A stretch of DNA of 64,000 nucleotides from Promethearchaeota archaeon (GTDB taxonomy: Archaea; Asgardarchaeota; Lokiarchaeia; Sigyniarchaeales; SOKP01): NCBI GenBank assembly GCA_048937405.1, contig JBHLNF010000002.1, positions 320,001 to 384,000 of the forward strand, in the 5' to 3' direction. The number at the start of each line of letters is the position of its first letter. The stretch's first letter is position 1. This document shows, piece by piece, positions 2,961 to 22,812 of this stretch. A program made the translations under genes and the position numbers. The notes below the pieces were generated by a model. That model ran no database searches, was not told where the DNA came from, and was given only the letters and a program-made list of their open reading frames with translations.

Positions 2961-3011
2961 AATGGAATGAATGGCACATTCAGAATCGAATCTAAATGAA
3001 AATTTCTTTGA
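2961..3011 (-). repeat. Cassette-boundary repeat copy R1 (degenerate)
   Basis: Reverse complement TCAAAGAAATTTTCATTTAGATTCGATTCTGAATGTGCCATTCATTCCATT matches family consensus. Confidence 0.7.
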
Positions 3012-3081
3012 GTTAAAATTGATAATAAAAAAGTATATTTCAACGTCTTGTCCTATTTATAAATAACGTATAACTTGGTGA

Positions 3082-3648
3082 TTGAGCTTTATTTTAATTC
3101 GTTTGATTGTGAGTGCTAGATTTAGAACGAATTGTTATCTTTTCGGAGATGAAAATACAAAAGAAATTGTTATTATTGACCCCGGGATTGATTCAAATAA
3201 TATCAAAAACCTTATTACTAGAGAAGGATACAAACCGGTTTATATAATAGGTACACATGCACACCATGACCATATTCAATGCGCTGCTGATGTTATGGAT
3301 TTTTATCATATTCCATTATTGATCAAGGATTTTGGGAATAGGAGTATTGAAACTATAAAACTCATTAAAGAAAATGATGTAATCAAAATTGGATCAGAAT
3401 GTCTTCATGTAATTGAAACACCAGGGCATTCCAAAAATGACATAATGCTGATTGATTACAATAACAAGCTTATCTTTACAGGAGATACTCTTTTGAGGGG
3501 AAGAATCCCTTGGCAACTAGTGAATTATGATGATTTGATGACTAGTATTAAAAAAATATTATACTATCCTAAAATTTCAGGTGAATTCAAAATCTATCCA
3601 GGTCACGGTAGTCATTCTACAATCGGCAAAGAAAGGTTGAATTATTAA
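3082..3648 (+). CDS. Metallo-beta-lactamase fold hydrolase (glyoxalase II-like)
   Basis: THAHHDH, TPGHS, FTGD and PGHG motifs. Confidence 0.9.
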   Translation: MSFILIRLIVSARFRTNCYLFGDENTKEIVIIDPGIDSNNIKNLITREGYKPVYIIGTHAHHDHIQCAADVMDFYHIPLLIKDFGNRSIETIKLIKENDVIKIGSECLHVIETPGHSKNDIMLIDYNNKLIFTGDTLLRGRIPWQLVNYDDLMTSIKKILYYPKISGEFKIYPGHGSHSTIGKERLNY

Positions 3649-3673
3649 TTTTATGTTAATTGTATTGGATAGA

Positions 3674-3710
3674 TAAATTTCAAGTCTGATTTCAATGAAA
3701 ATTTAGTAAA
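3674..3710 (-). repeat. Cassette-boundary repeat copy R2
   Basis: Reverse complement TTTACTAAATTTTCATTGAAATCAGACTTGAAATTTA. Confidence 0.85.
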
Positions 3711-3754
3711 ATCATGTGGATATTAATAAGGGTTCTCCTAAACAAATGATGTTC

Positions 3755-4669
3755 TTATAAGCCTCGAAGATAATCAGGTCGACGCATTTTTGGGTTTTTA
3801 ATACCCATTTCAATTGCTTTAAGAAATTGTTTTTTATCTCGACTTAATTCTCCTTTCAAATTTAGATAATTTGAAGCATGATTTGTGTTAAATACACATT
3901 TCTGCAAATCATCAGAGGTATGTTCTATCATCGTATATAATTCTTCTAAAATTTGGGTGCTTGAACATGGGTGGAATTCTTCATTTGCTTGTTGAGTCCA
4001 CAATTCAGATCCTGGAGTAACCCTTAAGGTTAAGGGTGAGATATACCAAGGAATTGGAGTTGGTGGAGACATCCTATTAATTAATTTTGCAGATTCAATC
4101 GCATGTTTTCGACTTTTTTCAGGATCATTTCCAGCAAGTCCTAATAAAAATATACCGGACCAAGAAATTCCTGCTTTATGACACTTTTGAGCTGCGAGGG
4201 CAAACTCATCCTGCGTGGTTCCCTTTTTACAATTTTTTAGAACATCATTATCTCCACTTTCGATACCCACGTAAACCATTGTAAATCCACTATCTGCTAT
4301 TCTTTTTAAATCTTCGTCCGATTTTTTTATGATATCTTTAGCATGAGCATAAGCACTTACTTTCTTGAGATTCGGATGAATTCTATAACAATATTTAGTC
4401 AGTTCAATGAGGACCTCAGGTTTAACAACAAACGCATTTCCATCTTCAAAAAAGACTTTACGTATGCGATTTCCATACACAACTCTCGCAACTTTAATAT
4501 CCTCTTTAATTTCTTCAAGATTTCTGCGAATTGAGAATGTTTTTGACCGATACATGGAACAAAAGGTACATCTATGGGTGCAGCCATTTGTTATTGCAAT
4601 CAATAAGGCATCCCACTCCGAAGGTGGTCTAAAGACGGGATCTTCCAAATTACCTACTACATAATTCAT
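3755..4669 (-). CDS. Radical SAM protein (copy 1 of tandem pair)
   Basis: CTHRCTFC CxxxCxxC motif; FRPPSE and HASNY family motifs. Confidence 0.9.
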   Translation of the reverse strand: MNYVVGNLEDPVFRPPSEWDALLIAITNGCTHRCTFCSMYRSKTFSIRRNLEEIKEDIKVARVVYGNRIRKVFFEDGNAFVVKPEVLIELTKYCYRIHPNLKKVSAYAHAKDIIKKSDEDLKRIADSGFTMVYVGIESGDNDVLKNCKKGTTQDEFALAAQKCHKAGISWSGIFLLGLAGNDPEKSRKHAIESAKLINRMSPPTPIPWYISPLTLRVTPGSELWTQQANEEFHPCSSTQILEELYTMIEHTSDDLQKCVFNTNHASNYLNLKGELSRDKKQFLKAIEMGIKNPKMRRPDYLRGL

Positions 4670-4847
4670 GATTACTTCTGTTTATAAGATGATTTCGTAC
4701 TATTATTTTAACTATAGTTATTTAATTCAATTTGAACTTATTGGAAAAAATATTGAATTACTGAAAAAGTTATTACTTACATCTGCTAAATGATTATCAA
4801 ATTTCTTTTTTATTTTAAAAATTAGCTTAAAATCTATAAATTACACT

Positions 4848-4889
4848 GAAAGGTTGCACAGAGTCGGATTTCAATGGAAAATTTTTAAA
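4848..4889 (-). repeat. Cassette-boundary repeat copy R3
   Basis: Reverse complement TTTAAAAATTTTCCATTGAAATCCGACTCTGTGCAACCTTTC. Confidence 0.75.
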
Positions 4890-4934
4890 GCGATTTGAAT
4901 AATTGAAAAGAACCCTTTTAAACAGATGAAATTT

Positions 4935-5849
4935 TTAGAACCCACGAAGATAATCAGGTCGACGAAATTGTGGATATATAATACCCAGTTCAACTGCTTT
5001 AAGAAATTGTGCTTTATCTCTGCTTAACTCTCCCCTTAAATTTAAATAATTTGAAGGATGATATGTGCTAAATACACACTTCTGCAAATCATCAGAGGTG
5101 TGTTTTATCATCGTATATAATTCTTGTAAAATTTGAGTACTTGAACATAACTGGAATTCTCCATTTGTCTGTTGAGTCCACAGCTCAGATCCTGGAGTAG
5201 GATTTAAGGTTAAGGGTGAGATATACCAAGGAATTGGGGTTGGTGGAGCCATTCGATTAATTAATTTTGCTGACTCAATCGCATGTTTTCGACTTTTTTC
5301 AGGATCATTTCCGGCAAGGCCTAATAGAAATATACCAAACCATGCAATGCCTGCTTTATGACATTTTTGGGCAGCGAGAGCAAGCTCATCTTGGGTAGTT
5401 CCCTTTTTACATTTTTTTAGAACATCATCATCTCCACTTTCGATACCCACGTAAACCATTGTAAATCCACTATCTGCTATTTTTTTTAAATCTTCATCCG
5501 ACTTGTTTATTATATCTTTAGCATGGGCATACGCACTTACTTTCTTGAGATTCGGATGGATTTCATAACAGAATTCCGTAAGTTCAATGAGAACCTCCGA
5601 TTTAACAACAAACGCATTTCCGTCTTCGAAAAATACTTTGCGAATACGATCTCCATATACAGCTTCCGCTATTTTAATATCACCTTTAATTTCTTCGAGA
5701 TTTCTACGAATTGAAAACGTTTTTGACCGATACATGGAACAAAAGGTACATCTATGGGTGCAGCCATTCGTTATTGCAATCAATAAGGCATCCCACTCTG
5801 GGGGTGGTCTATATACTGGTTCCTCCAAATTTCCAACTCTAAAATTCAT
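4935..5849 (-). CDS. Radical SAM protein (copy 2 of tandem pair)
   Basis: Same length (304 aa) and collinear with 3755..4669; CxxxCxxC. Confidence 0.9.
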   Translation of the reverse strand: MNFRVGNLEEPVYRPPPEWDALLIAITNGCTHRCTFCSMYRSKTFSIRRNLEEIKGDIKIAEAVYGDRIRKVFFEDGNAFVVKSEVLIELTEFCYEIHPNLKKVSAYAHAKDIINKSDEDLKKIADSGFTMVYVGIESGDDDVLKKCKKGTTQDELALAAQKCHKAGIAWFGIFLLGLAGNDPEKSRKHAIESAKLINRMAPPTPIPWYISPLTLNPTPGSELWTQQTNGEFQLCSSTQILQELYTMIKHTSDDLQKCVFSTYHPSNYLNLRGELSRDKAQFLKAVELGIIYPQFRRPDYLRGF

Positions 5850-6598
5850 GATTCCTTTAAGGTATACGTTAATGTTTAACCTTTCCTTCAGTCAGTTTTT
5901 ATTCCATTAGAAGTTAATATTTATAGTATTGAATTACTGAAAAAGTTATAAGGAAAACTAAAGCCTCATTAAATGTCTTATCGATCCAATAACCTCAAAA
6001 AATTAAGGAAAAATCGGTTTAACAAGATATTAAGAGAAATTTCTATTTACAAATTCATTATTGAGGGAGGTGATTTTTCTAAAAAGTATCTTTGGGTAAA
6101 ATATAATAAGATATTCAGTTTTGTATGCTTTAATAGGATACTAAAATTATATCGGAAAATCATACTTATTATCTACATAATAGACAAGTTAAAGTATTAT
6201 TCTATATTTTATTGAATAGAAGGGTAATATACACTAATTTGAGCAAACATTGGATTTCGCCCTCTATAAACCTTTCAATAGGTTTTTCTCTCCCTAAAAT
6301 TTTAGCTCAAATTTTTATTCCCTTCTCTTACTTACTTTTTTAATATTCACAATTAGTACTTTTAAATTCCCTAATTTCAATCTTTAATTGTAAATTAATC
6401 ATATCAATTGAAATCTCAACCACACTTTTTTCATTATACAATCATAAAATCTTCAAATAATATATAGCAATAAGATTTTTTTTGTTTCTCATATGTTCTT
6501 TATTATAGTTTTAATGAATAGTTAAAATATAATTTAATTAGCTTCACTCAAATTCTATTGAATTTTTAATGTAAGCTGCTTATCTTATATGAAAAGAA

Positions 6599-8992
6599 GT
6601 GAGAATGATAAAAGAAAATGCGAATCTCCCTACAAGGGTACAAAAATTTGGAAATGAGACGCAAGATACTTCTGGGTCACATATAACCGTTGTAAGAATG
6701 TATGCAGATCGAGCTTATATCGGAATTCCCGAGTTACTAAAAGAAGTTATCGATGATTCCAACAGGGAATCTTGGAGAAAAATATGCACAAAGATAGATT
6801 ATATTTACGAGAATTTAAACCATATTTTCAGAGCGCTCGGGGAAGAAACAAGGATAAAAGAGAAACTCCGTTTAGATCTCGAAAAGGGGAAGATCCTTCT
6901 TTTTAAACCAAACATAGTAAATCCTATGGTCATTGATCCTATTACCCATAATGAGGGAATTGCTACTAAGGTTTCTACAGAGTGGGCTCTCGTAGCCGCC
7001 TTGATGAGATGGATTCATGACAATTTTGATGTTTCATATCATCAGATGGCTTTGGGTGAAGCCGCTACCCTCATTTCTATGTATACAGGATTATATAATA
7101 TAAATCTTGATTTAAAAAAAAAAATAACCACAGAAGCCATCATCGAAGGCAAAAGTGGAGACTTTTATGGAGGGTGGGGTTTTTATTTTGTAAGAAAATA
7201 TCTATCTGAAAATCATCAACCTTCTCATGACGACGATCCAATGCATGGATATGAGGAAAGTGTCCTAGGAACCTATATATCTCCGGGTAGAGCATATAAC
7301 AAGCTCATGGTCTACGATTTGAATCGTGTTTATGATTTAAAAGATAAGGCCAGAACAATTCCAGTTCCTGATGGTGTAAACTTTAAAGAAATAACCCTTC
7401 ACAAAATAATAGTTGGAGGAGATCCAGATAATCCAAAAGATGCTACTGATTATCCTGGGTGCATCCTAATCAACATTCCCAGACTCAAGTTACATATGCT
7501 CGAACTTCTAACAAATGCAATCAAGAATCTAGGAATGGGACTTTATCCAATGCAAGCAACCAAAAAGGATGATCCCCAGAACCTCAGATGGAAATATAGT
7601 TTTCCTCATAATCTAATACCAGGATTAAAAGCAGAACTCCCTCATGAGATTTGGCACCCTATATGGGAGGAAGAAACCAATCTTCCATTACGAGATCAAA
7701 ACGGCAATTATCTAGTGAATAAAACAGGTGGAATCTACGCTACACAATCCGACATGATCAAGGCGATTATGAATCAGGATATATTAATGATTCATATTGT
7801 AGATGCCATTCAAGCGTTGAATCTTAGTCACACTGGCGGCGGAGTAAAGGTCCCTGAAGGCTTAATCCTTGCTTCTCTCGATCCTGTAGCTTTGGATCTT
7901 CTTTGTGCCAGATACTGTTTTAAAATGGTACCTATAAGGGAAGCATGCGAGCTTCAGAAGAAAATGGGATTAAAAAGTGACTTTTTACAGAGAGTAAGGA
8001 TTCCGAGAGTAGATGGAAAAAACATTTCAAGTGTAGAAGGATTTGATTCTCCACTCCCTAGGTATAAGCTATATGAATATGCGGAATCCAGAGGATTAGG
8101 ACAACAAAAATATTATGTTAAAGGATGGGATGCTATAGGAGATGTCTCTCTTGTTTCGATGCAAGGTCATCTCGGCTGGTTTGAAGATAGAAAATTTTGT
8201 GAGTTAATGACTTCAGAATTTTATTATAATCCCGCTGCTATGATCTGGGGGCTTCAAAAAACAGTAATAGCCTATTTAGAAGCAAATGATTTACTCACGG
8301 GATCATCATATCGAAAGATGTTATTCAACCTTTTTGATGAGAACCATGATGGCATAATTGATTATGATGAGAAAGGTAAGCTGGGTTGCTCAATGCCCCT
8401 CATAAGACTTAGAAGCATTCATCACACAATCCAAGGCACTGAGAGATATGGATTCTTACATGGACCATTTGAAAGTATAGGGATGATGAAATATGAAAAA
8501 AAGGAGTGGAATGCTCATGGACACGACTTTTCTAAAGATTTTGAGCTTTCTTTTAAAATTGCATTGGCATATAATATGTCCCAAATGCAAAATGAGCAAT
8601 CAGACCCTTTCTTCCACACAATGACTTGGGGTAACGGCAAGTGGCCGAGTCTCCAGTATGCCACTTTCTTTTCAATATTAATAGGTATATACGGCCCTCG
8701 ATTTCCAACAACTATAAGTATTTCCTCCTTATATGGTTTTGCTTTCCAATATGCAGATAAGACGTTGAATAACTCATATTATACAGGGGATATAGGCATG
8801 CCCAGTGACCCTGAAGCCGTTAACCATTATATCCAAGCTGTTCAAGAGGGTAAGGATCAACTAGACTTTGTAGTTTATGTTCCTAAGGGATTTGGTACAA
8901 TAAACGGAAAAATCTTACCTAATATTGTGGAAACGGATGATTCTCATAGAATTTTTACAGCTAGATTTGATAATGGTCAAGAAGTTTGGTAA
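6599..8992 (+). CDS. Large DUF362-like protein (probable Fe-S)
   Basis: LLFKPNIV, LINIPRLKLH...TNAIKNLG, IVDA and ASLDPVALD DUF362 motifs. Confidence 0.7.
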   Translation: MRMIKENANLPTRVQKFGNETQDTSGSHITVVRMYADRAYIGIPELLKEVIDDSNRESWRKICTKIDYIYENLNHIFRALGEETRIKEKLRLDLEKGKILLFKPNIVNPMVIDPITHNEGIATKVSTEWALVAALMRWIHDNFDVSYHQMALGEAATLISMYTGLYNINLDLKKKITTEAIIEGKSGDFYGGWGFYFVRKYLSENHQPSHDDDPMHGYEESVLGTYISPGRAYNKLMVYDLNRVYDLKDKARTIPVPDGVNFKEITLHKIIVGGDPDNPKDATDYPGCILINIPRLKLHMLELLTNAIKNLGMGLYPMQATKKDDPQNLRWKYSFPHNLIPGLKAELPHEIWHPIWEEETNLPLRDQNGNYLVNKTGGIYATQSDMIKAIMNQDILMIHIVDAIQALNLSHTGGGVKVPEGLILASLDPVALDLLCARYCFKMVPIREACELQKKMGLKSDFLQRVRIPRVDGKNISSVEGFDSPLPRYKLYEYAESRGLGQQKYYVKGWDAIGDVSLVSMQGHLGWFEDRKFCELMTSEFYYNPAAMIWGLQKTVIAYLEANDLLTGSSYRKMLFNLFDENHDGIIDYDEKGKLGCSMPLIRLRSIHHTIQGTERYGFLHGPFESIGMMKYEKKEWNAHGHDFSKDFELSFKIALAYNMSQMQNEQSDPFFHTMTWGNGKWPSLQYATFFSILIGIYGPRFPTTISISSLYGFAFQYADKTLNNSYYTGDIGMPSDPEAVNHYIQAVQEGKDQLDFVVYVPKGFGTINGKILPNIVETDDSHRIFTARFDNGQEVW

Positions 8993-9084
8993 TAGACAGG
9001 AAGCCTGAGCTCTTAAGGATTATTTCTAAAATTTTTGTATTGTTGAGCCTCTTATAAGACAAAATATTAAAGAAAAAAAAAGAA

Positions 9085-9448
9085 TTATCTGCTTATAAGA
9101 GCACCAATTAAAGTAATAATAAATACTCCAATAGCTATAAAAAAGCCATTTCCCAATCTCCACGCCCAATCTCCTCCCAATCCTAAATCTTCACTTCCCC
9201 GAAACACAATATAATCCTCATGAATCAACCAACTTAAACCTTCTAAAATATCCTCGAAATTTTCAATTACCGCTAATCTATAGCAAAAGAGTCCTAAGCT
9301 ACCGACCACGACAAACGCAAATACGATTGAAAGTTCTTTTTTTCTTTAATAGCAGAAACAATTATTAATACTGAATCCGATTAAAAATAATTCCTCCGAT
9401 TAGAAGTAAAGGTTCATGAAATTCAGAATTAACTGAATCATCGGACAC
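9085..9448 (-). pseudogene. Frameshifted small membrane protein remnant
   Basis: Hydrophobic reading continues upstream of the 9085..9309 ORF only through several frame changes. Confidence 0.4.
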
Positions 9449-9593
9449 TTAACTCAACTCGACTCTATTACTTTAATTAGAAATTACACTTCTTCAAATT
9501 ATGCATTTGTGTTTTCAAAAAACCAATATTCAATTTATTTAAATCTATTGAATTGTGAGTTTTTAAATAACAAATCTTTTCTTATCATTTTGC

Positions 9594-10118
9594 ATGACAA
9601 AAAATAAAAAAAAAATACTCCTTCTAGGTCTGGCAAATAGTGGAAAAACATCTATCGCTCTTTCAATGCAAAATATTACAGATTTGGTATCGTATACTGC
9701 CTTACAACCAACAAGAGGACTAGAGATTTCGGAGTTTGAGAATGACGACACAGAATTTTTCATATGGGATTTTGGGGGACAAGAAAAATATAGAGAACAA
9801 TACAAACAAAAGTTAAATAAATATATCGCCGAAACAAGTGAGATTATATATGTTATCGATATCCAAGATGATAATGTATTTTTTATATCTGTTGTTTTCT
9901 TAAGAGAAATCTTAAATATATTAAAAACTGCTGGTTTTAAGTTTGAATTATCCATATATTTTCATAAATTTGATGATAACTTCAAACCAGATGAAGAAAA
10001 AATCAAAGATTTATTGAAAATTATTAAAGAAGAAATTCCTGAAGGGTTTACCTATAAAATTTATCATACCAAAATACATGCCCTTTTTGAAAAAAACCTC
10101 TCACCCTATACTATATAA
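9594..10118 (+). CDS. Small GTPase, Arf/Rag-like (Asgard eukaryotic signature protein)
   Basis: GLANSGKTS (G1), PT (G2), WDFGGQ (G3), HKFD (G4). Confidence 0.85.
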   Translation: MTKNKKKILLLGLANSGKTSIALSMQNITDLVSYTALQPTRGLEISEFENDDTEFFIWDFGGQEKYREQYKQKLNKYIAETSEIIYVIDIQDDNVFFISVVFLREILNILKTAGFKFELSIYFHKFDDNFKPDEEKIKDLLKIIKEEIPEGFTYKIYHTKIHALFEKNLSPYTI

Positions 10119-10269
10119 AGTTTTCTGATGCTTTGGGAAAATAATGCAATCTATAAATTTTGATTTAAATTCCCCAAAATATTAATTCTGGGATTACTGG
10201 TTATTTTTGCAATTAATTCGTCTTGTGATAATTTTACCATAATATAAATTGATGATGAGGCAGAATGAA

Positions 10270-10764
10270 TTAATATTGCGATAAGAACTCCTCAACATCC
10301 TTTATGAAGTTCATTGTTCCTTTTTCTATTTGCCCAGTTAATGCATCTAAATCTCGAAAATCCGGATTGTCAACTAACACATATTCTACCACAGAATCAA
10401 TCCCTTGTATACTCGATGGAATACGGTATTTATCCCACCCTTTTTCCCTCACCAAATCCCAATATTCTTTCTGAACAGTCTTATTGTATCCTCCCAACCA
10501 TACTTCAAACTTGAATTCCTCATGCAGAAAGACAATCGCAACTCTCAATTTTCGAGCTTTCAATAAAGGGGGGTTGACCGCGAAATATGTCATATCCATA
10601 TATCCAAAATAAATCCCACCTGACACTGCGTACTTGGGATGCTTCTTTTTAAAATACGCTCTCAATGATCCAAAATATTCCATTAATCCTCGATATGCTT
10701 TCTGAATTATCCCCTTCCTTAACTGGTTTCGATATTCAATGATACTGTCATAAAATGAACTCAT
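10270..10764 (-). CDS. Conserved hypothetical protein (DUF7000-like)
   Basis: YFGYMDMTYF and FEVWLGGYN motifs recalled from a bacterial family. Confidence 0.55.
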   Translation of the reverse strand: MSSFYDSIIEYRNQLRKGIIQKAYRGLMEYFGSLRAYFKKKHPKYAVSGGIYFGYMDMTYFAVNPPLLKARKLRVAIVFLHEEFKFEVWLGGYNKTVQKEYWDLVREKGWDKYRIPSSIQGIDSVVEYVLVDNPDFRDLDALTGQIEKGTMNFIKDVEEFLSQY

Positions 10765-10838
10765 ATATACACATTGTGGTCAATATTTTATATTTGATTG
10801 TATTCCATTATTTCCACAGATTAACTAAAGAGTTAAGA

Positions 10839-10880
10839 TTCACTGAATTTTCATTGAAATCAGACTCTGAATTTGACATT
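10839..10880 (+). repeat. Cassette-boundary repeat copy R4
   Basis: TTCACTGAATTTTCATTGAAATCAGACTCTGAATTTGACATT; perfect core. Confidence 0.9.
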
Positions 10881-11072
10881 CAAGATTCTTTTAAAATAAT
10901 TATCCGAATCAAAATGTTTGAAATTAAATATGTAATCTCACATAGTTTATTGTTCTGATCAGAACTAATAAATAAATTTAAATATAAATATCACTTACTT
11001 TTTTGCAGAAATCCTTAAAGATTAGAAGACAATATTAGAATCAAAATTAGTAATTAATTAAGGGCACTATAA

Positions 11073-14228: not shown

Positions 14229-14306
14229 TTTTTCAAAGGATTTTTCATTGAAACCAGATGCTGAATTTACATTCCATTTCTAATTTCAAAGCAAAATTAG
14301 ACAAAA
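14229..14306 (+). repeat. Cassette-boundary repeat copy R5 (long form)
   Basis: TTTCAAAGGATTTTTCATTGAAACCAGATGCTGAATTTACATTCCATTTCTAATTTCAAAGCAAAATTAGACAAAA. Confidence 0.9.
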
Positions 14307-14386
14307 AGATTTTAGTCCTATAGATATTTATCTATATTTACTTCTCTCCTTATGAACTCTTAATACTTTTTTAGGACATAAATATC

Positions 14387-14899
14387 ATGGTTCGAAAAAT
14401 CAAGGTAGTTCCACATGATCCAAAATGGAAAAAAAAGTTTATTTTGGAAGCTAGAATCATTAAATCGATTTTTAACCAAGAAATCTTAGCAATCTATCAT
14501 ATAGGGAGCACGGCCATCCCTGAAATTAGTGCTAAACCTATTATTGATATTTTGGTTGAGGTGCATAATATTGATGTAATAGATGACTATAATGCTAAAA
14601 TGATTGAGCAGGATTATATACCCAAAGGGGAGTTTGGTATCCCTAGAAGGAGATACTTTATAAAAGGAAGTGAAGAATTTAGAACATTTCATGTTCATGT
14701 CTTTGAAAAAGGGAATCCTGAAATAACGCGTCATTTAAATTTTAGAAATTATATGATTGCTCATCCTAAAAAAGCGCAAGAATATAGCCAATTAAAAGAG
14801 AAACTCGTGCGAGAATACCCAGAAAATATAAATGGCTATATAAATGGAAAAGATTCCTTCATTAAAAACATAGATAAAAAAGCTAGAGATTGGAGATAA
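14387..14899 (+). CDS. GrpB family (UPF0157) nucleotidyltransferase-fold protein
   Basis: HIGSTAIP, AKPIIDI, HVH, FRNY and YINGK motifs. Confidence 0.9.
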   Translation: MVRKIKVVPHDPKWKKKFILEARIIKSIFNQEILAIYHIGSTAIPEISAKPIIDILVEVHNIDVIDDYNAKMIEQDYIPKGEFGIPRRRYFIKGSEEFRTFHVHVFEKGNPEITRHLNFRNYMIAHPKKAQEYSQLKEKLVREYPENINGYINGKDSFIKNIDKKARDWR

Positions 14900-14913
14900 T
14901 TTGTTTATAATTT

Positions 14914-14958
14914 TTCTACGAAATTTTCATTGAACTCAGACTCTGAATTTACCTTTCC
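14914..14958 (+). repeat. Cassette-boundary repeat copy R6
   Basis: TTCTACGAAATTTTCATTGAACTCAGACTCTGAATTTACCTTTCC. Confidence 0.9.
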
Positions 14959-15082
14959 TGAAAGTTATGACTTCTATATCAAATCAGAATTTAATAGGAT
15001 TAGCAGAAATAAAAATTAAAAAAAAGGGAATCACATAAACAAATTAGCAGGATTGTAAACGTGGGTAAGTAAATCTTCAAAA

Positions 15083-15355
15083 TTATTCTTTTGAACCAAT
15101 TTTCGTTCGAATAATTTTAAACACTACGGGGTTATTCGGATCTGGACAACAAACCATTGTTGTATCCTTATCTTGGGACCAAGGAAAAGAACCGTCAAAT
15201 CTTAATGTGGTAATAGACGGATAAATCGTATGATACGCAGACTGGCAAAGTTTCCCAACGTCATCGGGATATTTAAATTTATCACCGACCTTATGCCCTA
15301 GAGGACATTCTCCTCTTTCGAGGATTTTAACAATCTCTAAAGTAATTTCATTCAT
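15083..15355 (-). CDS. TIGR04076 family Cys-rich small protein
   Basis: CPLGHKVGD, LCQSA and CCPDPNNPVVF motifs. Confidence 0.8.
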   Translation of the reverse strand: MNEITLEIVKILERGECPLGHKVGDKFKYPDDVGKLCQSAYHTIYPSITTLRFDGSFPWSQDKDTTMVCCPDPNNPVVFKIIRTKIGSKE

Positions 15356-15456: not shown

Positions 15457-15505
15457 TTTTTCAAAGGAATTTTCATTGAAATCAGACGCTGAATTTACGT
15501 TTTCT
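15457..15505 (+). repeat. Cassette-boundary repeat copy R7 (overlaps acyltransferase stop codon)
   Basis: TTTTTCAAAGGAATTTTCATTGAAATCAGACGCTGAATTTACGTTTTC. Confidence 0.9.
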
Positions 15506-16687
15506 CAAATGAACTTTTTCAAGGACAAAATGACTCAATAGATAGCAAACTATAACTGTTAAAGGAAATACAATTGCCACTTTTAAAGTAGGATAAATTC
15601 TTAAGAATGCAAATCCAAGTGATATAACAATAAGGACGGGTGGATGAAGAAGGTACATATGATATGCGCTACTGGATAGGTTATGTAATATAGATCCTTG
15701 TTTATTGAATTTTGAGTAAAAAATCTTAATCAAAATAAAAATAACTCCCATACAGATGACATTATCAACCATAGCAAGTAAAAAAGCATGCAAATTGAGT
15801 CCCCCATTGAAATCTATAAATTCTTTGTCCATTGCTATAGCTAGAAAAAAATCAATATAAATTATTACGAGTGAAATTATTATTGTAATTAACCAAATTT
15901 TTACATGTCTTTTAGTCATTTTTTCGAACCAACGATACCTAATGCAAATAACTCCAATGCTGAACATCATTAGATACTGAATAAGTTGACCCCATGGTAT
16001 TTCCAAAGGGCGTACATCTATAGGTAAGAATATACGAACTAAAAAAGTAAGAAATCCTAACCCTATAGCTAAAAGAAGTAAATAAGAATATTTTGGAATC
16101 GAAAATTCCTTTGGAATTTTTTGCTGTACCCAACCTAACTTAGTTACTTGACGCCAAAGTGTATAAACAGCAGTGAATATTAGTAAAACCTTAAGAAACC
16201 ACATAGGGCCCCCAAATGAAATGAAGTTAATAAAATCTTCCCAAGATAAAAATCTACTGAAGTAATAATCTAAAAATGTTCCTTGCAGCATAGGGTTTGT
16301 ATTCCAAGAAGGGATCCCTAATTTTGCTAGGGTATAAATCATAAGAGGATTTATTAATAGGGTATAAACAAGGAGAGGGATGCCGAGACGAATAAGGCGT
16401 TCTTTCCAAAAACTGCGAACACCTTTTCGATCATAACTTTTAGGAGTAAAATAACCCCCTAATAAAAAGAATAATCCTAAGAGTGAAGTTTGAAAAACAC
16501 CTCCTATTGAAGCGACAAGTAGAAAGAAAATTTCACTGAATGGATCAACTGGATTAGATTCTTTATAATACCACCACCCTACTTCAAAATAAGTGACCAT
16601 TGTGTGCCAAAAAATCACTAGAATAGTAAAAAGGACTTTTATATTGTCAAGGAAAAGATACCGTATTCTCTCAGATTCTGTGTTCAT
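15482..16687 (-). CDS. Acyltransferase 3 family (MdoC/OpgC-like) membrane protein
   Basis: FLDNIK...H, FFLLGGYF, RLIRLGIP, MWFL and YLLH motifs; multiple TMs. Confidence 0.9.
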   Translation of the reverse strand: MNTESERIRYLFLDNIKVLFTILVIFWHTMVTYFEVGWWYYKESNPVDPFSEIFFLLVASIGGVFQTSLLGLFFLLGGYFTPKSYDRKGVRSFWKERLIRLGIPLLVYTLLINPLMIYTLAKLGIPSWNTNPMLQGTFLDYYFSRFLSWEDFINFISFGGPMWFLKVLLIFTAVYTLWRQVTKLGWVQQKIPKEFSIPKYSYLLLLAIGLGFLTFLVRIFLPIDVRPLEIPWGQLIQYLMMFSIGVICIRYRWFEKMTKRHVKIWLITIIISLVIIYIDFFLAIAMDKEFIDFNGGLNLHAFLLAMVDNVICMGVIFILIKIFYSKFNKQGSILHNLSSSAYHMYLLHPPVLIVISLGFAFLRIYPTLKVAIVFPLTVIVCYLLSHFVLEKVHLRKRKFSV

Positions 16688-16893
16688 ATGAAATATTATA
16701 ACCTTATTAACTCTATTTCTTCAACTCACAACGATTTAATTATTTTTTTTGATTTAAAACCCTTAGCATTTATTTACACATATAATTTCATCTAAGATCT
16801 TAATATTTTTTGTTTATTTGATTATATAATAAAAAGATGGGTTTTAAAAAAGAACATACCAATCTTATTACTTTTTATTTTGTCTTTTTGTAT

Positions 16894-16972
16894 GGAATTT
16901 TCACCAAAATCAGACTCTGAATTTACACTTCCATCCAATTTTCACAGAAAATTAAGACAAAATTTAAAAAGG
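16894..16972 (+). repeat. Cassette-boundary repeat copy R8 (long form)
   Basis: GGAATTTTCACCAAAATCAGACTCTGAATTTACACTTCCATCCAATTTTCACAGAAAATTAAGACAAAATTTAAAAAGG. Confidence 0.9.
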
Positions 16973-17057
16973 CTCGAACCGTGTGTTTCTTAAAAAGGAG
17001 GAAAATACAAATAAGAGAAAAATGCATTAGAACAAAAAAATGATCTAATGTAGAAAA

Positions 17058-18164
17058 ATGAGAGAGAATAAAATAATTACTGATATAGAGCAGTTAACAC
17101 CAGAATGGTTGACGAGGATCCTCAAAAATAAAGGATACTTTAACCAAGGAAAAGTAACTAAAATAATTAAGAAAAGATCACAAGAAACTATAACTTCTAA
17201 TGTACATTTCTTAGAGCTAAACTTTTCAAATGATGCTCAAACGGAACCATCTTCTTCTGAAATAGTTGTAAAAATCCCCAAATCCAATGACGTATCTAGG
17301 TTTGTTGGGAAACATGAAGCAAAATTTTATCGTATCGTAGCTGAAATGATGAGCGAAATGCCAATTCCAATCTGTTATGATGCAGCGTTTTCTGAAGAAA
17401 CTGGTTTTTCACATATTATCCTTGAAAATTTATCAAAAACACATGTGGAAAATTTCGAATATCCTCCTTCAAAACGAAATAATGAAAGAGCAATTGACTG
17501 TTTAGCAGAATTACATGCTTTTTGGTGGGATCACCCCATGCTTAAGGAACTATCGAAAAATTCTTACGTTCTTTACACATTTAAAGAAAATTCTTTTAAT
17601 AAAGAAGAAATTTTTAAATGGTTTAATAACCAGAAAATGACACTCAAGCCATTTTTAGAAATCTTAGGAGAACGAATAGGAAATAAAAGTAAGGAGTTAT
17701 TTAAAACCATATTCTCATTATATCCTCAAGTGGCATATGAACGAATCGCAAAAGAGAATATAACAGTAATCCATTGTGATGCTCATTTCGGGAATTTTTT
17801 CTATCCAAAAGACATAATAGATCAAAAATATAAAACAATATTACCTGATTGGCAAAATTGGAGTATCGGTGTAGGAGGTCAAGATCTAGCATATATGATA
17901 GGACTCTCTTTCTTTCCTGACTATCGGCATTTAATGGAAAAAGATCTTATCAAACGTTATCATAATAAGCTTTTAAAGTCAGGTGTGAAAAATTATAGCT
18001 GGGACGAGTGTTGGTATGATTACAAGTTATTTACTATATTAAATATTTACAGAATTATCTGGTGGTGGAGTATTGGTATACCTTCTATAGTTTGGTGGCC
18101 TCAATTAGAAGCTTCCATTAATACTATAAAAGATTTAAATTGTATGGAGCTTTTAGAAAGCTAA
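17058..18164 (+). CDS. Aminoglycoside/choline/ecdysteroid kinase-like phosphotransferase
   Basis: HCDAHFGN Brenner motif, DWQ, DLAY. Confidence 0.85.
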   Translation: MRENKIITDIEQLTPEWLTRILKNKGYFNQGKVTKIIKKRSQETITSNVHFLELNFSNDAQTEPSSSEIVVKIPKSNDVSRFVGKHEAKFYRIVAEMMSEMPIPICYDAAFSEETGFSHIILENLSKTHVENFEYPPSKRNNERAIDCLAELHAFWWDHPMLKELSKNSYVLYTFKENSFNKEEIFKWFNNQKMTLKPFLEILGERIGNKSKELFKTIFSLYPQVAYERIAKENITVIHCDAHFGNFFYPKDIIDQKYKTILPDWQNWSIGVGGQDLAYMIGLSFFPDYRHLMEKDLIKRYHNKLLKSGVKNYSWDECWYDYKLFTILNIYRIIWWWSIGIPSIVWWPQLEASINTIKDLNCMELLES

Positions 18165-18494
18165 AATACTTATAGTTTTTTTTTTAATAAATTTCATTGT
18201 TGGAATTGTGTCTTTAGTTCCGTACACCAGACTTAATATGAGAAGAAGGAAGAATCAGATGCAAAATCCTCGAAATTATAAATAACTCCTCTTTTTTTAA
18301 TTTAAAGAAAATTAAGCCTCTTTTTTTGAAAATTAATATATTGCTCGAAACCAATCACTGCATCCAGTAATATCAGTAACTTTATCTTTCATCCCTGGAA
18401 TATTTGCTAATAAAATATTGAAATTCAAGAATAAATTATATAAAAGAGCGTATCTTCCTCTCTTTTAATCCAATAATTTTTTACAAAAAAGTAA

Positions 18495-19253
18495 ATGAAG
18501 GATGAAATAATTATTAAAAGAAAAGTTTTATTGTTATCGATTTTCGCTATTCTTGTATTTTTTTCAGTAATAAATTTCTTGCCAGTTGTTCACGGTTTAA
18601 ACCTTAATATCAATGATGCAGAAAATGATGTTATCCGTAATTGCGGTACTGGGGACGATACTGGCGATTATTATGATGAAATAGATATTGTTAAACTCAT
18701 TATTTCTGGAAGAAATGTTAATGTAACAATAGCGGGTAGTTTAGCTAAGTGGAATCTAAGTCACTATGGGAGTGTTATATTTTCTGAATGGTTCAGGGCT
18801 GTTTCAGCCCCCAGTTATTTTGCATATAATGTTCCTTATTATGCTATTGATTACGATAATGACATTGGTTCGATGGTAGCTAAATTGGAAAAGGGATACC
18901 CTCTTAATGATGAAGGTTATGCTTATGAAGTTTGGAATGGTACTGCCTGGGAAGATAGATTTGATATGGTAGGAAGTCCTTTCAATATAGTAGACACTGT
19001 GACTAATCATTCAATAACTTTTTATATTCCTGATGCAGTTGAGGAACTTCCAAGCAATATGAAAGCAGTTGTCAGTAATCGTTTCTCAAAAATCTTTGGG
19101 AACTGTGATTTTATAGATTTTACTCCTCTTCCTTCTGATCATGGGATTAATTCTGATCAATGGATTTCTAGTTATGATATATTCGTACTTATATGTACTA
19201 TGATTGGTATTTCATTTATAATAATTAAAAACTACAAAACACAGAATCCATAA
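18495..19253 (+). CDS. Secreted protein with C-terminal sorting-signal-like tail
   Basis: N-terminal signal; C-terminal ISSY, TM helix, basic residues. Confidence 0.7.
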   Translation: MKDEIIIKRKVLLLSIFAILVFFSVINFLPVVHGLNLNINDAENDVIRNCGTGDDTGDYYDEIDIVKLIISGRNVNVTIAGSLAKWNLSHYGSVIFSEWFRAVSAPSYFAYNVPYYAIDYDNDIGSMVAKLEKGYPLNDEGYAYEVWNGTAWEDRFDMVGSPFNIVDTVTNHSITFYIPDAVEELPSNMKAVVSNRFSKIFGNCDFIDFTPLPSDHGINSDQWISSYDIFVLICTMIGISFIIIKNYKTQNP

Positions 19254-19310
19254 AACAAATTATTTAATTTCTTATTTTTTCTTTAGCTATAATCTAAATT
19301 TAAAACCTTA

Positions 19311-19657
19311 ACTCATGAAGGAATAATCTGCAGCGGTTATTCTTATATGAGAGTCATAATAACACCGTTTCGGGAAATAATATAAATTATAACTATCGTG
19401 GAATATATATACATGGCAGCTCTTATTATGGAACAATTAGTAATAGCAATTATATCTAAGGAAACACTTTAATCGGAAATTATTGTTGTATTTACAAAGA
19501 TGAAATTTGTTACGATAAAATTATTGAAAATAACGATTGTGGTGAAAGCAACGAGAGATTCCCTTTCGGAATTTTAATTTCAATTATTAGTATAGGAGGT
19601 GTAATAGGGATAGCAACCATCCTTCTAATTAGACACAAAAGGAAAGGAACGGGATAA
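19311..19657 (+). pseudogene. Fragment of a NosD/parallel beta-helix surface protein with Loki-CTERM-like tail
   Basis: NNTVSGNNINYNYRGIYI...*GNTLIGN...IENNDCG, then IPFG-ILISIISIGGVIGIATILLIRHKRK*; internal stop and frameshifts. Confidence 0.65.
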
Positions 19658-19839
19658 TACACTGTTATAATGGTACCTCATGAAACCTCTCCAAACACTT
19701 GACTTACCCTCACGCTCTAAGATTGAAACTTGAGTGTCTAAACACTAAAATAAAAAATTTTAATTATTTGAGAAGGTTCTATTTTATATAGTATCAAGGA
19801 CGCGGATTAGCGGTAAATATCAAGGAGAGTAATAAAAGA

Positions 19840-20341
19840 ATGAGGATTTTACTATTTCTCCATGGAACCTGTATCATGCACAGGAATGCCTTAGGTCTAT
19901 CAAGAATTCAAATAGTACAGCAGGTTATTGAGGATAATGATCATTCAATCTCTGATTTTGCTTCGTATATTCCAATTGGTAAAGTTATTAAGAAATTAAC
20001 ATCATGGAAAAATCAAGGGGCTGAGATTTCATATCTTAGTTCTCATTTAACTCTTGAAAACGTGAAAAGAGACGAAATTGTATTAAAAAAATGTAATTTT
20101 CCTAAAGGCACCATATTTTATCGACAAAAAGAGGAAGATTGGAACGTACAAATTGAAAAAGCAAAACCAGATATAATAATTGAAGATGATTGCGAGAGTA
20201 TTGGAGGAAAACATCAGATGACTTTCCCTAATCTTAAACCGGAATTACAATCTAAAATAATTTCTATTGTTATAAAAGAATTCGGGGAATTGATCATCTT
20301 CCTGATGATATAAATAGACTAAAGGATTTTGCTGCTGAATA
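19840..20341 (+). CDS. HAD-like hypothetical protein; C-terminus frameshifted in a G4 run
   Basis: ILLFLHGT and IIIEDDCESIGG; adding one G at 20284-20287 gives EFGGIDHLPDD...AE*. Confidence 0.6.
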
Positions 20342-20359
20342 ATGATATTTTAATAAGAC

Positions 20360-20436
20360 TTTTCAAAGGAATTTTCATTGAGATCAGACTCTGAATTTAC
20401 CTTTCCATTCCAATTTTCACAGAAAATTGGGACAAA
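20360..20436 (+). repeat. Cassette-boundary repeat copy R9 (long form, best consensus)
   Basis: TTTTCAAAGGAATTTTCATTGAGATCAGACTCTGAATTTACCTTTCCATTCCAATTTTCACAGAAAATTGGGACAAA. Confidence 0.95.
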
Positions 20437-20610
20437 TATTACTTTATTAATGATACATTCGAGCAATAGTATTTTGTTTTTCAAAATTCATAACTAAATC
20501 CTATATCTATATACTATTTTATAATTCATTAAGTGGGAATTTCTCAAATAAATTTAAATAAAAGCTCTTTTATAATTAAGTACAAGTTAATCCCACTAAT
20601 TAGCAAAAAA

Positions 20611-21162
20611 ATGAGAAAAATGAAATTAGCTAATAAACTAGTCATGCCTTTAGTTTTGGTTCTTTTATCTCTTCCAATTAATGTTGGAGCAACATATTGG
20701 CTTAAGGACAGTTTTGAGGAGTCTAAAGTCGTTAATAATGAATTTTGGTACTTTAATTTAGGATCGAGCACTGCATCTTACAAATTAGATATTGACATAA
20801 CGAGTGAAAGATCCATAGATGTTTTGTTTATGGATGATGAAAATTATTATAAATATGATTTTGGAAGTAATTTTACGTATTTTGCCGGAGCAAGTCAATT
20901 AGATATAACTTTCATGGACGTTGTTTATACTACAACTCCACAAATTGCTTACTTTTTAGTAATTGACAACACGGATAATGTACCGAATGGAGCAAGTTAT
21001 ACGGGTCCAACAAATGTAACTGTGAAGGTTATTTCTACGAGAGTAGATGGTAGTAACCTCACTATACCTGGTTATCCAATATTGATCCTTGGTGTATTTA
21101 CTGGAGTTGCTGTTATTATAAGCTATAAGAAAAAGAAAAAAAGTTTTAAATTTATAAAGTAA
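20611..21162 (+). CDS. Secreted protein with Loki-CTERM-like sorting signal
   Basis: Signal peptide; C-terminal IPGY, TM helix, KKKKK; ATG 20611 preferred over GTG 20533. Confidence 0.75.
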   Translation: MRKMKLANKLVMPLVLVLLSLPINVGATYWLKDSFEESKVVNNEFWYFNLGSSTASYKLDIDITSERSIDVLFMDDENYYKYDFGSNFTYFAGASQLDITFMDVVYTTTPQIAYFLVIDNTDNVPNGASYTGPTNVTVKVISTRVDGSNLTIPGYPILILGVFTGVAVIISYKKKKKSFKFIK

Positions 21163-21219
21163 ACTATTTCAAGTAAATTATTCTCTTTTTTTACCCCAAT
21201 AGAGAATAAAGGTTTGTTA

Positions 21220-21291
21220 TTTTCAAAGAAATTTTCATTGAGCTAAGACGCTGAATTTACCTTTCCATTCCAATTTCACAGAAAATTGGGA
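21220..21291 (+). repeat. Cassette-boundary repeat copy R10 (long form)
   Basis: TTTTCAAAGAAATTTTCATTGAGCTAAGACGCTGAATTTACCTTTCCATTCCAATTTCACAGAAAATTGGGA. Confidence 0.95.
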
Positions 21292-21401
21292 TTTAATGAT
21301 ATTTTATTTTTAAAGATTTGTTATATCTAAATTTATTAAAAAGATATTGTTTTTTAGAAATGCTCTGATTATTATAATTACTACCTGTAAAAGTAGCTAT
21401 T

Positions 21402-22034
21402 ATGAATAAATTAAAAGTTCCTTATCGTGTAACTGAGGGACAAGCTAAAGCGGCTGCTAAAACACTTGCTCGAGCATTCCATGATTACCCCATACATACT
21501 TATTTATTCCCTGATGAAGATGAAAGAATTAGAAAGGTACCAATACTTATGGAATATTTAGTTCGTTATGGAATCATCTATGGTGAAGTATATGGTAGCT
21601 CACCAAATCTAGAGGGTATAGCTGTTTGGCTTCCTTTTTGGGATGCTGAAATGACTGAAGAGAGATTAAAAAAATGTCGTATGTCTTATAGAGATGGTAA
21701 AGAACTTCCCTCTGTATTTGATGAGGAATTTTCTAAGAACTATGAACCTATAGAACAGTGTGAATACAGATGTCATAAACAATACGCTGATTTTTTTAAC
21801 TGGTATTTATATCCAATTGGTGTAGATCCAGATCATCAAGGAAGTGGCTATGCGGGGTTATTATTAAGATCGAAATTCGAGGAAATTGACAAACAAGATA
21901 TACCTTGTTATTTAGAAACTTATAAGGAAAAAAATGTTCCGCTCTATCAACATTTTGGTTTTAAAACTGTTGAAACCGGAATAATAACCAGAACAGATCT
22001 TACATTTTGGGCAATGTTACGCAAAAAAGATTAA
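21402..22034 (+). CDS. GNAT family N-acetyltransferase
   Basis: IGVDPDHQGSGYA, CYLET, LYQHFGF. Confidence 0.9.
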   Translation: MNKLKVPYRVTEGQAKAAAKTLARAFHDYPIHTYLFPDEDERIRKVPILMEYLVRYGIIYGEVYGSSPNLEGIAVWLPFWDAEMTEERLKKCRMSYRDGKELPSVFDEEFSKNYEPIEQCEYRCHKQYADFFNWYLYPIGVDPDHQGSGYAGLLLRSKFEEIDKQDIPCYLETYKEKNVPLYQHFGFKTVETGIITRTDLTFWAMLRKKD

Positions 22035-22041
22035 GAAATTA

Positions 22042-22126
22042 TTCCACTAAATTTTCATTGAACTCTAACTCTAAATTTTCCTTTCCATTCAATTTTCACA
22101 GAAAATTGGGACAAAAGTTAAAAAGG
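22042..22126 (+). repeat. Cassette-boundary repeat copy R11 (long form)
   Basis: TTCCACTAAATTTTCATTGAACTCTAACTCTAAATTTTCCTTTCCATTCAATTTTCACAGAAAATTGGGACAAAAGTTAAAAAGG. Confidence 0.9.
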
Positions 22127-22217
22127 TTGGGAGGACAACTAATCGTCTCCTAATTAGAGGCAAAGATTATAAATATTATCATATCTTAATTTTTGTTGAA
22201 AAAGAAGGATTTATATT

Positions 22218-22610
22218 ATGCAAGAAAAGTGCCTTGATTGTGGAGCGGATATAAAACCAGGATGGGATTTCTGTCTGACATGTGGTTCAAAATTCGCAGA
22301 TCAGATGGAAAGGACCCTAGAAGAGCAGCAAATAATAGATAAAAAAATAAAAGAGAAGCAAAAGCAGCAAAAAAAGGAATTTAAAGAAAGTATGCGGGGA
22401 CGGAAAGAAAGGAAGAGAAAGGAGATTAAAAAAGCTATTCGAAGATCAATGATGAAATTCCTTATATTCCTTGGGATCAGTCTTTTGACAGGGATAATTG
22501 GATTTTTCATTGGATCAATTTATTTTGATCAGGGGGGTCTAGGATTTATTATTGGATTTTTTACTCCCTTGATTGTGTTAGGTGTTATAGTATGGATTTC
22601 TAATTATTAG
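22218..22610 (+). CDS. Zinc-ribbon, coiled-coil, 2-TM protein
   Basis: CLDCG...CLTCG; two C-terminal TMs. Confidence 0.75.
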   Translation: MQEKCLDCGADIKPGWDFCLTCGSKFADQMERTLEEQQIIDKKIKEKQKQQKKEFKESMRGRKERKRKEIKKAIRRSMMKFLIFLGISLLTGIIGFFIGSIYFDQGGLGFIIGFFTPLIVLGVIVWISNY

Positions 22611-22767
22611 TCTTAGATTTCATCGAGAGGGAGAAAATTTTTTTTTAATAGTTTATAGAAGGGAGTGATGTTGGGTGAGCAAATTGGATAACACCCCCTC
22701 CCCTTGAAAAACCACTGATCATGGATGGTTGTTCCATATAGCAGAAATTTACTAATTTTCTGATTTA

Positions 22768-22812
22768 TTTCAAAGGAATTTTCATTGAACTCAGACGCTG
22801 AATTTACATTTC
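22768..22812 (+). repeat. Cassette-boundary repeat copy R12
   Basis: TTTCAAAGGAATTTTCATTGAACTCAGACGCTGAATTTACATTTC. Confidence 0.95.

Follow-up and report, generated by a model that had tools for sequence, protein, structure and literature searches.

A conserved junction repeat as the probable attachment site of small integrative gene units in one genus of Promethearchaeota

A 64,000-nt stretch of a Promethearchaeota genome (the window; positions 320,001 to 384,000 of contig JBHLNF010000002.1 in assembly GCA_048937405.1) carries, next to the thermosome gene, a series of accessory genes separated by copies of one short repeat. The arrangement raises the question of what this junction repeat is, and whether the genes that it separates move by means of it. 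A first-pass annotation of the sequence had proposed an Asgard gene-capture platform with an undescribed recombination site. The source genome, G000, is a 4.47-Mb assembly of 29 contigs that is 100% complete by marker genes, and the window is G000:C28:320001-384000; G numbers stand for genomes, C for contigs and L numbers for extracted loci or metagenome contigs, and all other positions are those of the window. The thermosome gene has its relatives in metagenome-assembled genomes of Promethearchaeota that come from marine sediments. We consider it probable that the repeat is the attachment or crossover site of small integrative gene units that are confined to one Promethearchaeota genus (Loki-type Asgard archaea). 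The recombination itself is something we infer from the sequence comparisons presented below.

The junction repeat and the reshuffling of cassettes

An nhmmer profile built from the copies recovered all 12 copies listed in the first-pass annotation (E values from 1e-6 to 4e-17), each at the position given for it. A search with a 29-mer from the core gave seven matches at no more than three mismatches, compared to none in 100 shuffles, and repeat finding yielded nine plus-strand copies of 53-89 nt. A 13th copy lies 2.3 kb to the left of the window (G000:C28:317653-317706). The profile found no copy between 22.8 and 64 kb, in agreement with the earlier remark that the housekeeping part (25-64 kb) is free of the repeat. 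Three copies (2934-4891) are on the minus strand and nine (10839-22844) on the plus strand, and the two runs point away from a 6-kb central segment. The copies had been described as intergenic or located at a gene end, often soon after a stop codon, which agrees with our results: all are intergenic except the copy at 15458, which overlaps about the last seven codons of the acyltransferase gene, and several begin 5-57 nt past a stop codon. Eight of the 11 intervals between copies contain a single gene, and the names given to these genes, those of the MBL hydrolase and the radical SAM protein included, were upheld by Pfam and NCBIfam.

The consensus over 118 copies from many genomes and species is TTTTCAAAGGAATTTTCATTGAAATCAGACTCTGAATTTACCTTTCC. 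Positions 12-46 are conserved at 90% or more, and the core is about 46 nt long, with position 31 (T/G) as its sole poorly conserved position. The description of the repeat as palindromic was correct for two short dyads within the core, TTTCA-T-TGAAA and TCAGA-C-TCTGA, but not for the core as a whole, which is directional. A downstream hairpin, CCAATTTTC-ACA-GAAAATTGG, is present in about half of the copies; among the copies that lack it, replacement hairpins were not commoner than in control windows. This hairpin was rejected as a conserved fold, as it belongs to one right-flank family and its mean energy was -4.6 kcal/mol, compared to -4.2 kcal/mol in control windows. A structured RNA was also rejected: Rfam returned no family for the repeat (a sub-threshold snoRNA-like match lies elsewhere) and RNAalifold predicted no pairs. 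The repeat is not attC, as had been stated from the start, and none of the 12 copies has a pair of RYYYAAC...GTTRRRY ends within 250 nt.

We scanned congeners (24 at first, five further ones later) and genomes of other genera with a sequence-only model. The repeat was present in all 29 congeners tested, with 1 to 47 copies per genome, and in none of 16 genomes from other genera of the same order. G000 harbors about 27 significant copies, which are distributed over 11 loci and lie exclusively in accessory DNA. Thirteen are clustered in the array described here; the remainder are singles or co-oriented pairs around one gene, and a scatter among core genes, which would have spoken for a different kind of repeat, was not seen. 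In an exact-pattern scan, more than 120 metagenome contigs carried the repeat and viral contigs gave no match. Copies were weakly enriched at contig ends (38 within 300 nt of an end, compared to 25 expected), which assembly breaks induced by the repeat could also explain. Contigs of many relatives (for example G002:C12 and C19, G011:C37, G024:C6, L162 and L184) often end in or just past the core, and this fits assembly breaks induced by the repeat or by strain variation. The ends of one metagenome contig of 2064 nt (L205) share a near-identical stretch of about 100 nt that is not the junction repeat and may represent another repeat family or an assembly effect.

Neighboring copies less than 8 kb apart were co-oriented in 128 of 130 pairs (74 of 76 in genome loci, 30 of 30 and 24 of 24 in metagenome contigs), and the median unit is 1.18 kb. 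Such co-orientation is predicted by single-crossover insertion at a site and is not predicted by transposition. Relative to the direction of the repeat, the genes flanking 108 copies were convergent in 34 cases, tandem in 31, divergent in 23 and again tandem in 20. These proportions are the same as those of the background gene pairs in the same loci (98/85/82/106, in that order); convergent gene ends flank 31% of the copies and divergent starts 21%, with no departure from the background. A promoter, an operator or a terminator is therefore disfavored, since each would deplete one class. For half of the copies, a gene on the same strand follows at a distance of 140-290 nt. The cassette genes occur in both directions at background frequencies with upstream regions of 60-250 nt, in line with the earlier view that they lie in both orientations behind upstream regions of their own.

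The first-pass annotation had suggested a comparison of the thermosome locus across strains. In an initial comparison with 13 congeners, the array side of the thermosome gene varied in every one, whether or not the repeat was present; these congeners are about 80% identical and therefore too distant for breakpoint mapping. The comparison became informative with two closer relatives, G052 and G059 (flanks with a DNA identity of about 87-88%), in which units of the window occur at other loci and homology breaks at the repeat. The block 16907-18181, which contains a repeat and the EcKL kinase gene, is 94% identical to G052:C15:45045-46319, compared to 88% for the flanks, and in G052 it sits between two repeats at a locus orthologous to contig 17 of G000. 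The block 21220-22094 (repeat, GNAT gene, repeat) is 91% identical to G059:C24:118-992, where it has other neighbors. The TIGR04076 block 15084-15503 is 90% identical to a region of G024:C18, with homology that stops at repeat position +45. In G012, a GNAT cassette takes the place of the kinase behind the acyltransferase ortholog and the next repeat, and homology to the long form of copy 8 stops at 17024. Homology with G059 at the repeat at 10839 spans the DUF7000 gene and the repeat to +39, and the cassettes beyond differ. A 125-aa cassette from contig 25 of G000 has its counterpart in the array of G059 orthologous to the window. Solitary copies likewise sit in DNA that is absent from relatives.

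Two loci outside the window extend these results. At the contig-17 locus, G000 carries a gelsolin-repeat gene between two repeats (G000:C17:230273-231484; L047 8274-9485), and G052 and G059 hold other DNA; homology with both restarts 4 nt before the second repeat. The 403-aa product belongs to a eukaryote-signature family, and the gene is present at other loci in G013 and G043 with 85-87% DNA identity. At the contig-25 locus (G000:C25:176.7-180.6 kb; L049 7700-11700), 3.45 kb of DNA is inserted into the 3' end of a gene for a DinB/Dpo4-type polymerase; in G052, G047 and G054 this gene is uninterrupted. The insertion holds an OYE flavin oxidoreductase gene, two repeats and a 160-aa cassette. 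A 210-nt duplication of the polymerase gene end (88% identical) flanks the insertion, and the core abuts the displaced relic; the dpo4 3' end served as a look-alike target for one insertion. Modules bounded by the repeat have thus been reshuffled between species.

The linked operon and the putative crossover point

A subset of the copies shares about 180 nt, compared to 46-85 nt in the others. The extension consists of a BRE/TATA-like stretch, a GGAGG motif and the first 20 or so codons of a small gene. Four congeners have this gene intact, in each case 126 nt from the start of the repeat; G000 lacks it. The long form of copy 8 (16886-17024) is made up of the core, the hairpin, the BRE/TATA-like stretch, GGAGG and a decayed start of an RHH gene (ATG to ATA), and relics of the operon start follow many other copies. 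When all repeat-bearing loci were searched by tblastn with the XerA protein of G000, two metagenome contigs matched. On both, the repeat precedes two overlapping genes: the stop of the first, for a 172-aa protein, overlaps the start of the second, which encodes a 306-aa tyrosine recombinase. At its N-terminus the 172-aa protein is of the RHH type (a NikA-like match below threshold), and its C-terminus resembles a winged helix; the recombinase is about 302-306 aa long across units.

The distance from the start of the repeat to the RHH gene downstream is 126 nt in each of the eight close, intact operons with upstream sequence (L264, L279, two in G041:C129 (L297), G041:C122 (L298), G062:C168 (L299), G019:C29 and L309). 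With 10-50 copies per genome of 3-5 Mb, such adjacency would arise by chance in about 1 in 1000 cases per operon. Four of six such units (L264, L279, L297 and L299) close at a second co-oriented repeat 5-9 kb downstream, and a diverged operon (recombinase 75% and RHH protein 62% identical) is paired with a correspondingly diverged site. The linked recombinase that had been suggested for the repeat is thus present in relatives, in the form of a tyrosine recombinase at constant spacing. The pattern did not extend to G008, whose diverged operon (recombinase 54% identical) is preceded by 256 nt that are unique in that genome. Serine recombinases and HUH Y1 transposases were rejected as candidates; they were sporadic or broken and uncorrelated with the repeat. 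No recombinase was shared among the G000 arrays and 45 loci of relatives, in which the recurrent families were hydrolases, NosD, TPR and GNAT proteins.

The recombinase carries a PF00589 domain (E 1e-22). Its best NCBIfam match is archaeal XerA (XerA_Arch) with 94.5 bits against a cut-off of 220, and it is not a XerA ortholog; the integron-integrase model TIGR02249 gave 52.6 bits against a cut-off of 265, over residues 42-206 only. The nearest solved structure is that of XerA (5HXY, E 2e-15), to which the enzyme aligns without gaps from K175 to H242, with no insertion at the place of the extra domain of IntI. The catalytic residues are intact: R151, K175, H242, R245, H268 and Y278 are invariant in nine members with 47-100% identity. 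Public collections contain 177 clusters of the family, all under generic names, from Asgard metagenome-assembled genomes or marine sediments.

Within the genus, the recombinase was detected (E 1e-15 or better) in eight of 54 genomes. A search of the G000 assembly found no such recombinase, and no integrase gene was found in the window, the latter as previously stated. The suggestion that the array is served in trans or from outside the window was therefore not borne out for this organism, whose genome is without the cognate enzyme. The 13-site array beside the thermosome gene is accordingly integrase-less, and either a frozen fossil or movable only by an incoming element.

A convergent gene nearly always follows the operon, encoding either X1 (about 500 aa) or X2 (about 410 aa, with a weak P-loop). 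Apart from this P-loop, X1 and X2 matched no Pfam or PHROG family, and both genes diverge much faster than the recombinase. One recombinase unit encodes a D5_N/DUF5906 primase-helicase (L309 8298-9830), which suggests that some units are small integrated replicons. The cargo of a recombinase unit and the next cassette in G041:C129 (L297 5717-11112) is rich in leucine-rich-repeat proteins, with one weak toxin-deaminase-like match.

The core is nearly identical in all ordinary copies, and the exchange point could therefore not be located from them. Homology extends to about +46 between copies with a common left flank, and from about 0 between those with a common right flank. The variants at core positions 1-28 resemble each other more among copies with the same left flank, and those from position 36 onward among copies with the same right flank. 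Hybrid sites, in which half of a repeat is joined to unrelated DNA, were more telling. Left halves end at 24-27 in L039, G052/G059 (L057/L058), L238 and G054 (L074), and right halves start at 28 in L179, L276 and L307. The right half in L307 precedes an intact operon, as expected of an element inserted at a non-repeat target. The clustering of the hybrid junctions, next to the poorly conserved position 31, points to a predicted crossover at GAAAT^CA^GAC, positions 25-28 and perhaps to 32, in the middle of the 46-nt core.

We propose the following scheme. Autonomous units of 5-9 kb would consist of the site, the RHH/winged-helix and Xer-like recombinase operon 126 nt downstream, and cargo. Most units, including all in the window, would have lost the operon, leaving 0.5-3.5 kb with one to three accessory genes that have their own expression signals; some cassettes would keep a relic of the operon promoter and first codons. 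A circular unit with one site may recombine with a chromosomal site, and now and then with a look-alike sequence, after which the inserted unit would be flanked by two sites in the same direction. Repeated insertions would build co-oriented arrays, and an exchange between any two sites could excise, move or invert units. The recombinase would cut the repeat, circular intermediates would form, and cassettes without the operon would be mobilized in trans. Serial insertion at existing sites would account for the shared direction of the copies, for their spacing of one gene and for operon relics such as that at 16886-17024.

Several results weigh against this proposal. Judged from the consensus, the core shows no 11-6-11 and no clean 13-8-13 dyad. 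The repeat occurs without the recombinase in 46 of the 54 congeners, G000 included, and copy number does not track the presence of the enzyme (G002 has 47 copies and no recombinase). There was no circular contig among 80 metagenome contigs, as judged by the lack of terminal overlaps. The empty loci orthologous to contig 17 (G061, G012 and G044) and to contig 25 (G052, G047 and G054) have no repeat at all, so that first insertions must use other sequences. The linkage of core variants is weak evidence from few clusters of related copies, and homologous exchange along the core also fits it. In addition, some truncations fall outside the cluster, at 21 (window 18199), about 20 (L178), 31-32 (L280) and about 42 (the dpo4 junction).

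An explanation that we judge unlikely, although it accounts for part of these results, is that the repeat is mainly the operator or promoter of the RHH-recombinase operon, bound by the RHH protein, and one end of degraded elements whose true crossover lies elsewhere, the stumps having been reshuffled by homologous recombination between repeats of 46-85 nt. The position of the repeat directly upstream of the operon, followed by the BRE/TATA-like stretch and GGAGG, is that of an operator, and RHH proteins commonly bind short dyads like those of the core. The many genomes with the repeat and without the enzyme, the scatter of truncation points over more than one position and a gradient of linkage compatible with exchange spread along the core are also in keeping with it, and the tandem duplication of a repeat with the radical SAM gene resembles unequal homologous exchange. 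However, the hybrid half-sites of seven independent loci break inside the repeat, at positions 24-28, and interspecies homology stops or starts at the core and not beside it. An operator alone would not keep a conservation of at least 90% in hundreds of operon-less copies. Attachment sites normally adjoin the integrase gene, and both roles can coexist. Taken as an operator, the repeat fits the hybrid junctions less well than as an attachment site.

It is improbable that the host XerA moves the integrase-less cassettes via the repeat, as in IMEX and pdif modules, with the linked recombinase serving larger elements only. Every genome searched has one conserved XerA-type gene, G000 has little else, and the linked enzyme is itself Xer-like, with XerA_Arch and XerA 5HXY as its best matches. 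Nevertheless, it is only 23% identical to the XerA of G000, the core is without an 11-6-11 dif-type dyad, the single XerA-type gene in each of five genomes is unlinked to any copy, and the repeat is found in one genus only whereas XerA is universal.

Very little speaks for a MITE- or REP-like transposable element of the non-autonomous kind, or for a promoter, terminator or transcription-factor motif that accumulates in accessory DNA: the repeat is short, intergenic, AT-rich and genus-specific, with 1-47 copies per genome, begins with a T-run and often has a same-strand gene downstream, but its neighboring copies are co-oriented, its alignments have sharp, non-inverted ends with no terminal inverted repeats or target duplications, its flanking genes are convergent or divergent as often as in the background, it has no Rfam family and no consensus fold, and it is tied to a recombinase operon.

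Comparison with known systems

If the repeat is an attachment site, the units resemble several known systems in part. The only archaeal cassette system described is the classical integron with attC sites, for which arrays without an integrase (CALINs) are also known (Ghaly et al. 2022, PMC9668308), and its integrase, IntI, has an additional domain around patch III (PMC9668308). As in integrons, small and mostly single-gene accessory cassettes lie between co-oriented recombination sites, a gene for a tyrosine recombinase of the Xer clade stands beside a copy of the site, most arrays are without the enzyme (that of G000 being comparable to a CALIN), and cassettes recur in other arrays and species. 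Unlike the sequence-variable, folded attC with its R and L boxes, the site described here is a conserved, directional double-strand site of about 46 nt. The linked recombinase fails the IntI model and is without the extra domain, and an RHH/winged-helix partner gene precedes it in the same operon. The cassette genes point either way and have upstream regions of their own, whereas integron open reading frames are mostly promoterless, in one direction and expressed from Pc. The enzyme is found on mobile units inside arrays and not at a fixed head, and the arrays occupy many loci.

The cis-mobilisable elements (CIMEs) beside ICESt1 and ICESt3 are integrase-less derivatives in tandem accretion. 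Tycheposons with cargo-only satellites in Prochlorococcus are an example of tandem accretion as well (bioRxiv 10.1101/2020.12.28.424599). Here as there, direct repeats of a single att site bound each unit, the integrase gene of autonomous members lies beside att, and deleted derivatives that keep att and cargo pile up in tandem and are assumed to be mobilized in trans. Those elements differ in that they target a fixed tRNA gene or gene 3' end whose sequence is the repeat. The repeat described here is no piece of a host gene (no tRNA or Rfam match), occurs at 11 or more loci per genome and is missing from empty loci, and the units are mostly single genes. The recombinase is carried by repeat-bounded units of 5-9 kb inside the arrays, and the system is therefore closer to tandem accretion than to the intI-attI-attC arrangement.

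The pdif sites of Acinetobacter plasmids are 28-bp sites of the form 11-6-11, in alternating orientation, that are served by the host XerC/D. The modules between such sites are, like the units described here, small, enzyme-less and accessory, with short sites and a recombinase of the Xer clade; the junction repeats differ in being co-oriented, longer and not dif-like, and a dedicated, element-borne enzyme exists. Archaeal elements with integrases of the SSV or pNOB8 type integrate at tRNA genes. They too have a tyrosine recombinase beside att, and some of our units carry a D5-type primase-helicase in the manner of small integrated plasmids, but our units do not target a tRNA gene, their integrase gene stays whole on integration, and single-gene units form multi-copy arrays. 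The system works like an integron and like the tandem accretion of integrative elements, and is a member of neither.

A literature search found no paper describing this site or operon. The earlier claim of an undescribed, non-attC recombination site is supported, as far as sequence can indicate, by the unit boundaries and by the linkage to the recombinase in relatives. The related notion of a gene-capture platform stands insofar as the site bounds mobile accessory units, but the 11 loci and the empty loci without a repeat argue against one fixed platform. More tentatively, it is quite possible that the genus runs an independently evolved, non-integron cassette system, in which a double-strand site, an Xer-like recombinase and its RHH partner would capture, stack and exchange single-gene cassettes between loci and species, eukaryote-signature genes such as the gelsolin-repeat gene included, with mobilization in trans by transient sibling elements.

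Features of the window and implications for the genus

The features of the window are listed in Table 1, together with the convergent genes that follow the operon in relatives. The central segment is largely kept in G059:C26, as far as the repeat at 10839, and the opposed sub-arrays on its two sides may represent an inversion between inverted sites or two independent series. The radical SAM genes at 3755-4669 and 4935-5849 are tandem duplicates that include the repeat (a 1180-bp unit; proteins 86% identical), and G059:C26 has at least three tandem radical SAM copies with no repeat detectable between them. An Arf/Rag-like small GTPase is encoded in the central segment at 9594-10118, and G022 has a 74% identical gene close to its thermosome gene. 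The sub-threshold Rfam match, to a C/D-box snoRNA (33 bits, gathering cut-off 60), covers 10250-10327 over the 3' end of the DUF7000 gene and is probably due to chance. The housekeeping part contains a separate 81-nt direct repeat (34970-35050 and 35883-35963; copies 89% identical at a distance of 913 nt), which has no relation to the junction repeat.

Table 1. Junction repeats, cassette genes and associated features (window positions unless a locus is named)
Feature	Position	Strand	Basis or remark
GNAT gene	125..802	+	repeat-flanked cassette in G059, G011, G012 and G054; flanking repeats lost here
Junction repeat copy 1	2934..3013	-	nhmmer E 7e-11; 150 nt upstream of methyltransferase gene 1700-2782
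Junction repeat copy 2	3658..3712	-	nhmmer E 1.5e-6; pattern with 3 mismatches; between convergent gene ends
Junction repeat copy 3	4821..4891	-	nhmmer E 2e-7; inside 1180-bp tandem duplication with radical SAM gene
Central segment between opposed sub-arrays	4892..10838		radical SAM copy, 80-aa ORF (open reading frame), DUF362 protein, Arf-like GTPase, DUF7000 protein (Pfam)
Junction repeat copy 4, first of plus sub-array	10839..10914	+	exact 29-mer
Junction repeat copy 5	14230..14308	+	nhmmer E 4e-15
GrpB cassette gene	14387..14899	+	PF04229, E 2e-52
Junction repeat copy 6	14912..14992	+	nhmmer E 1e-15
TIGR04076 cassette gene	15083..15355	-	TIGR04076, E 3e-22
Junction repeat copy 7	15458..15511	+	nhmmer E 4e-12
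Acyltransferase-3 cassette gene	15482..16687	-	PF01757 (Acyl_transf_3)
Junction repeat copy 8	16886..16966 (profile span); 16886..17024 (long form)	+	aligned with long forms of five other genomes
EcKL-type kinase cassette gene	17058..18164	+	PF02958
Decayed left half of a repeat	18176..18199	+	at end of homology with G052 kinase cassette; direct sequence comparison
Junction repeat copy 9	20361..20439	+	nhmmer E 4e-17
Secreted or membrane-anchored protein cassette gene	20611..21162	+	ORF with signal-like N-terminus; no Pfam family
Junction repeat copy 10	21221..21299	+	nhmmer E 2e-16
GNAT cassette gene	21402..22034	+	Pfam
Junction repeat copy 11	22041..22120	+	nhmmer E 2e-13
Zinc-ribbon membrane protein cassette gene	22218..22610	+	Pfam, weak
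Junction repeat copy 12, last before conserved thermosome gene	22768..22844	+	nhmmer E 4e-14
Convergent X1/X2 genes	L264 3965-5482; L297 1934-3166, 14274-15791; L298 4190-5665; L299 6187-7419		

The finding offers an alternative to the integron as a cassette system, with a site of about 46 nt, a two-gene module that is available in public metagenomes and a predicted crossover. Its natural cassettes have demonstrably been relocated between species that are about 88% identical in DNA. The repeat serves as a marker for the flexible gene pool of the genus and explains assembly breaks in the accessory regions of these genomes, and some 180 clusters with the generic name 'tyrosine recombinase' can be set apart as a family of their own whose site is known. 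Should the enzyme act as proposed here, it would provide a compact site-specific recombination tool from a mesophilic archaeon.

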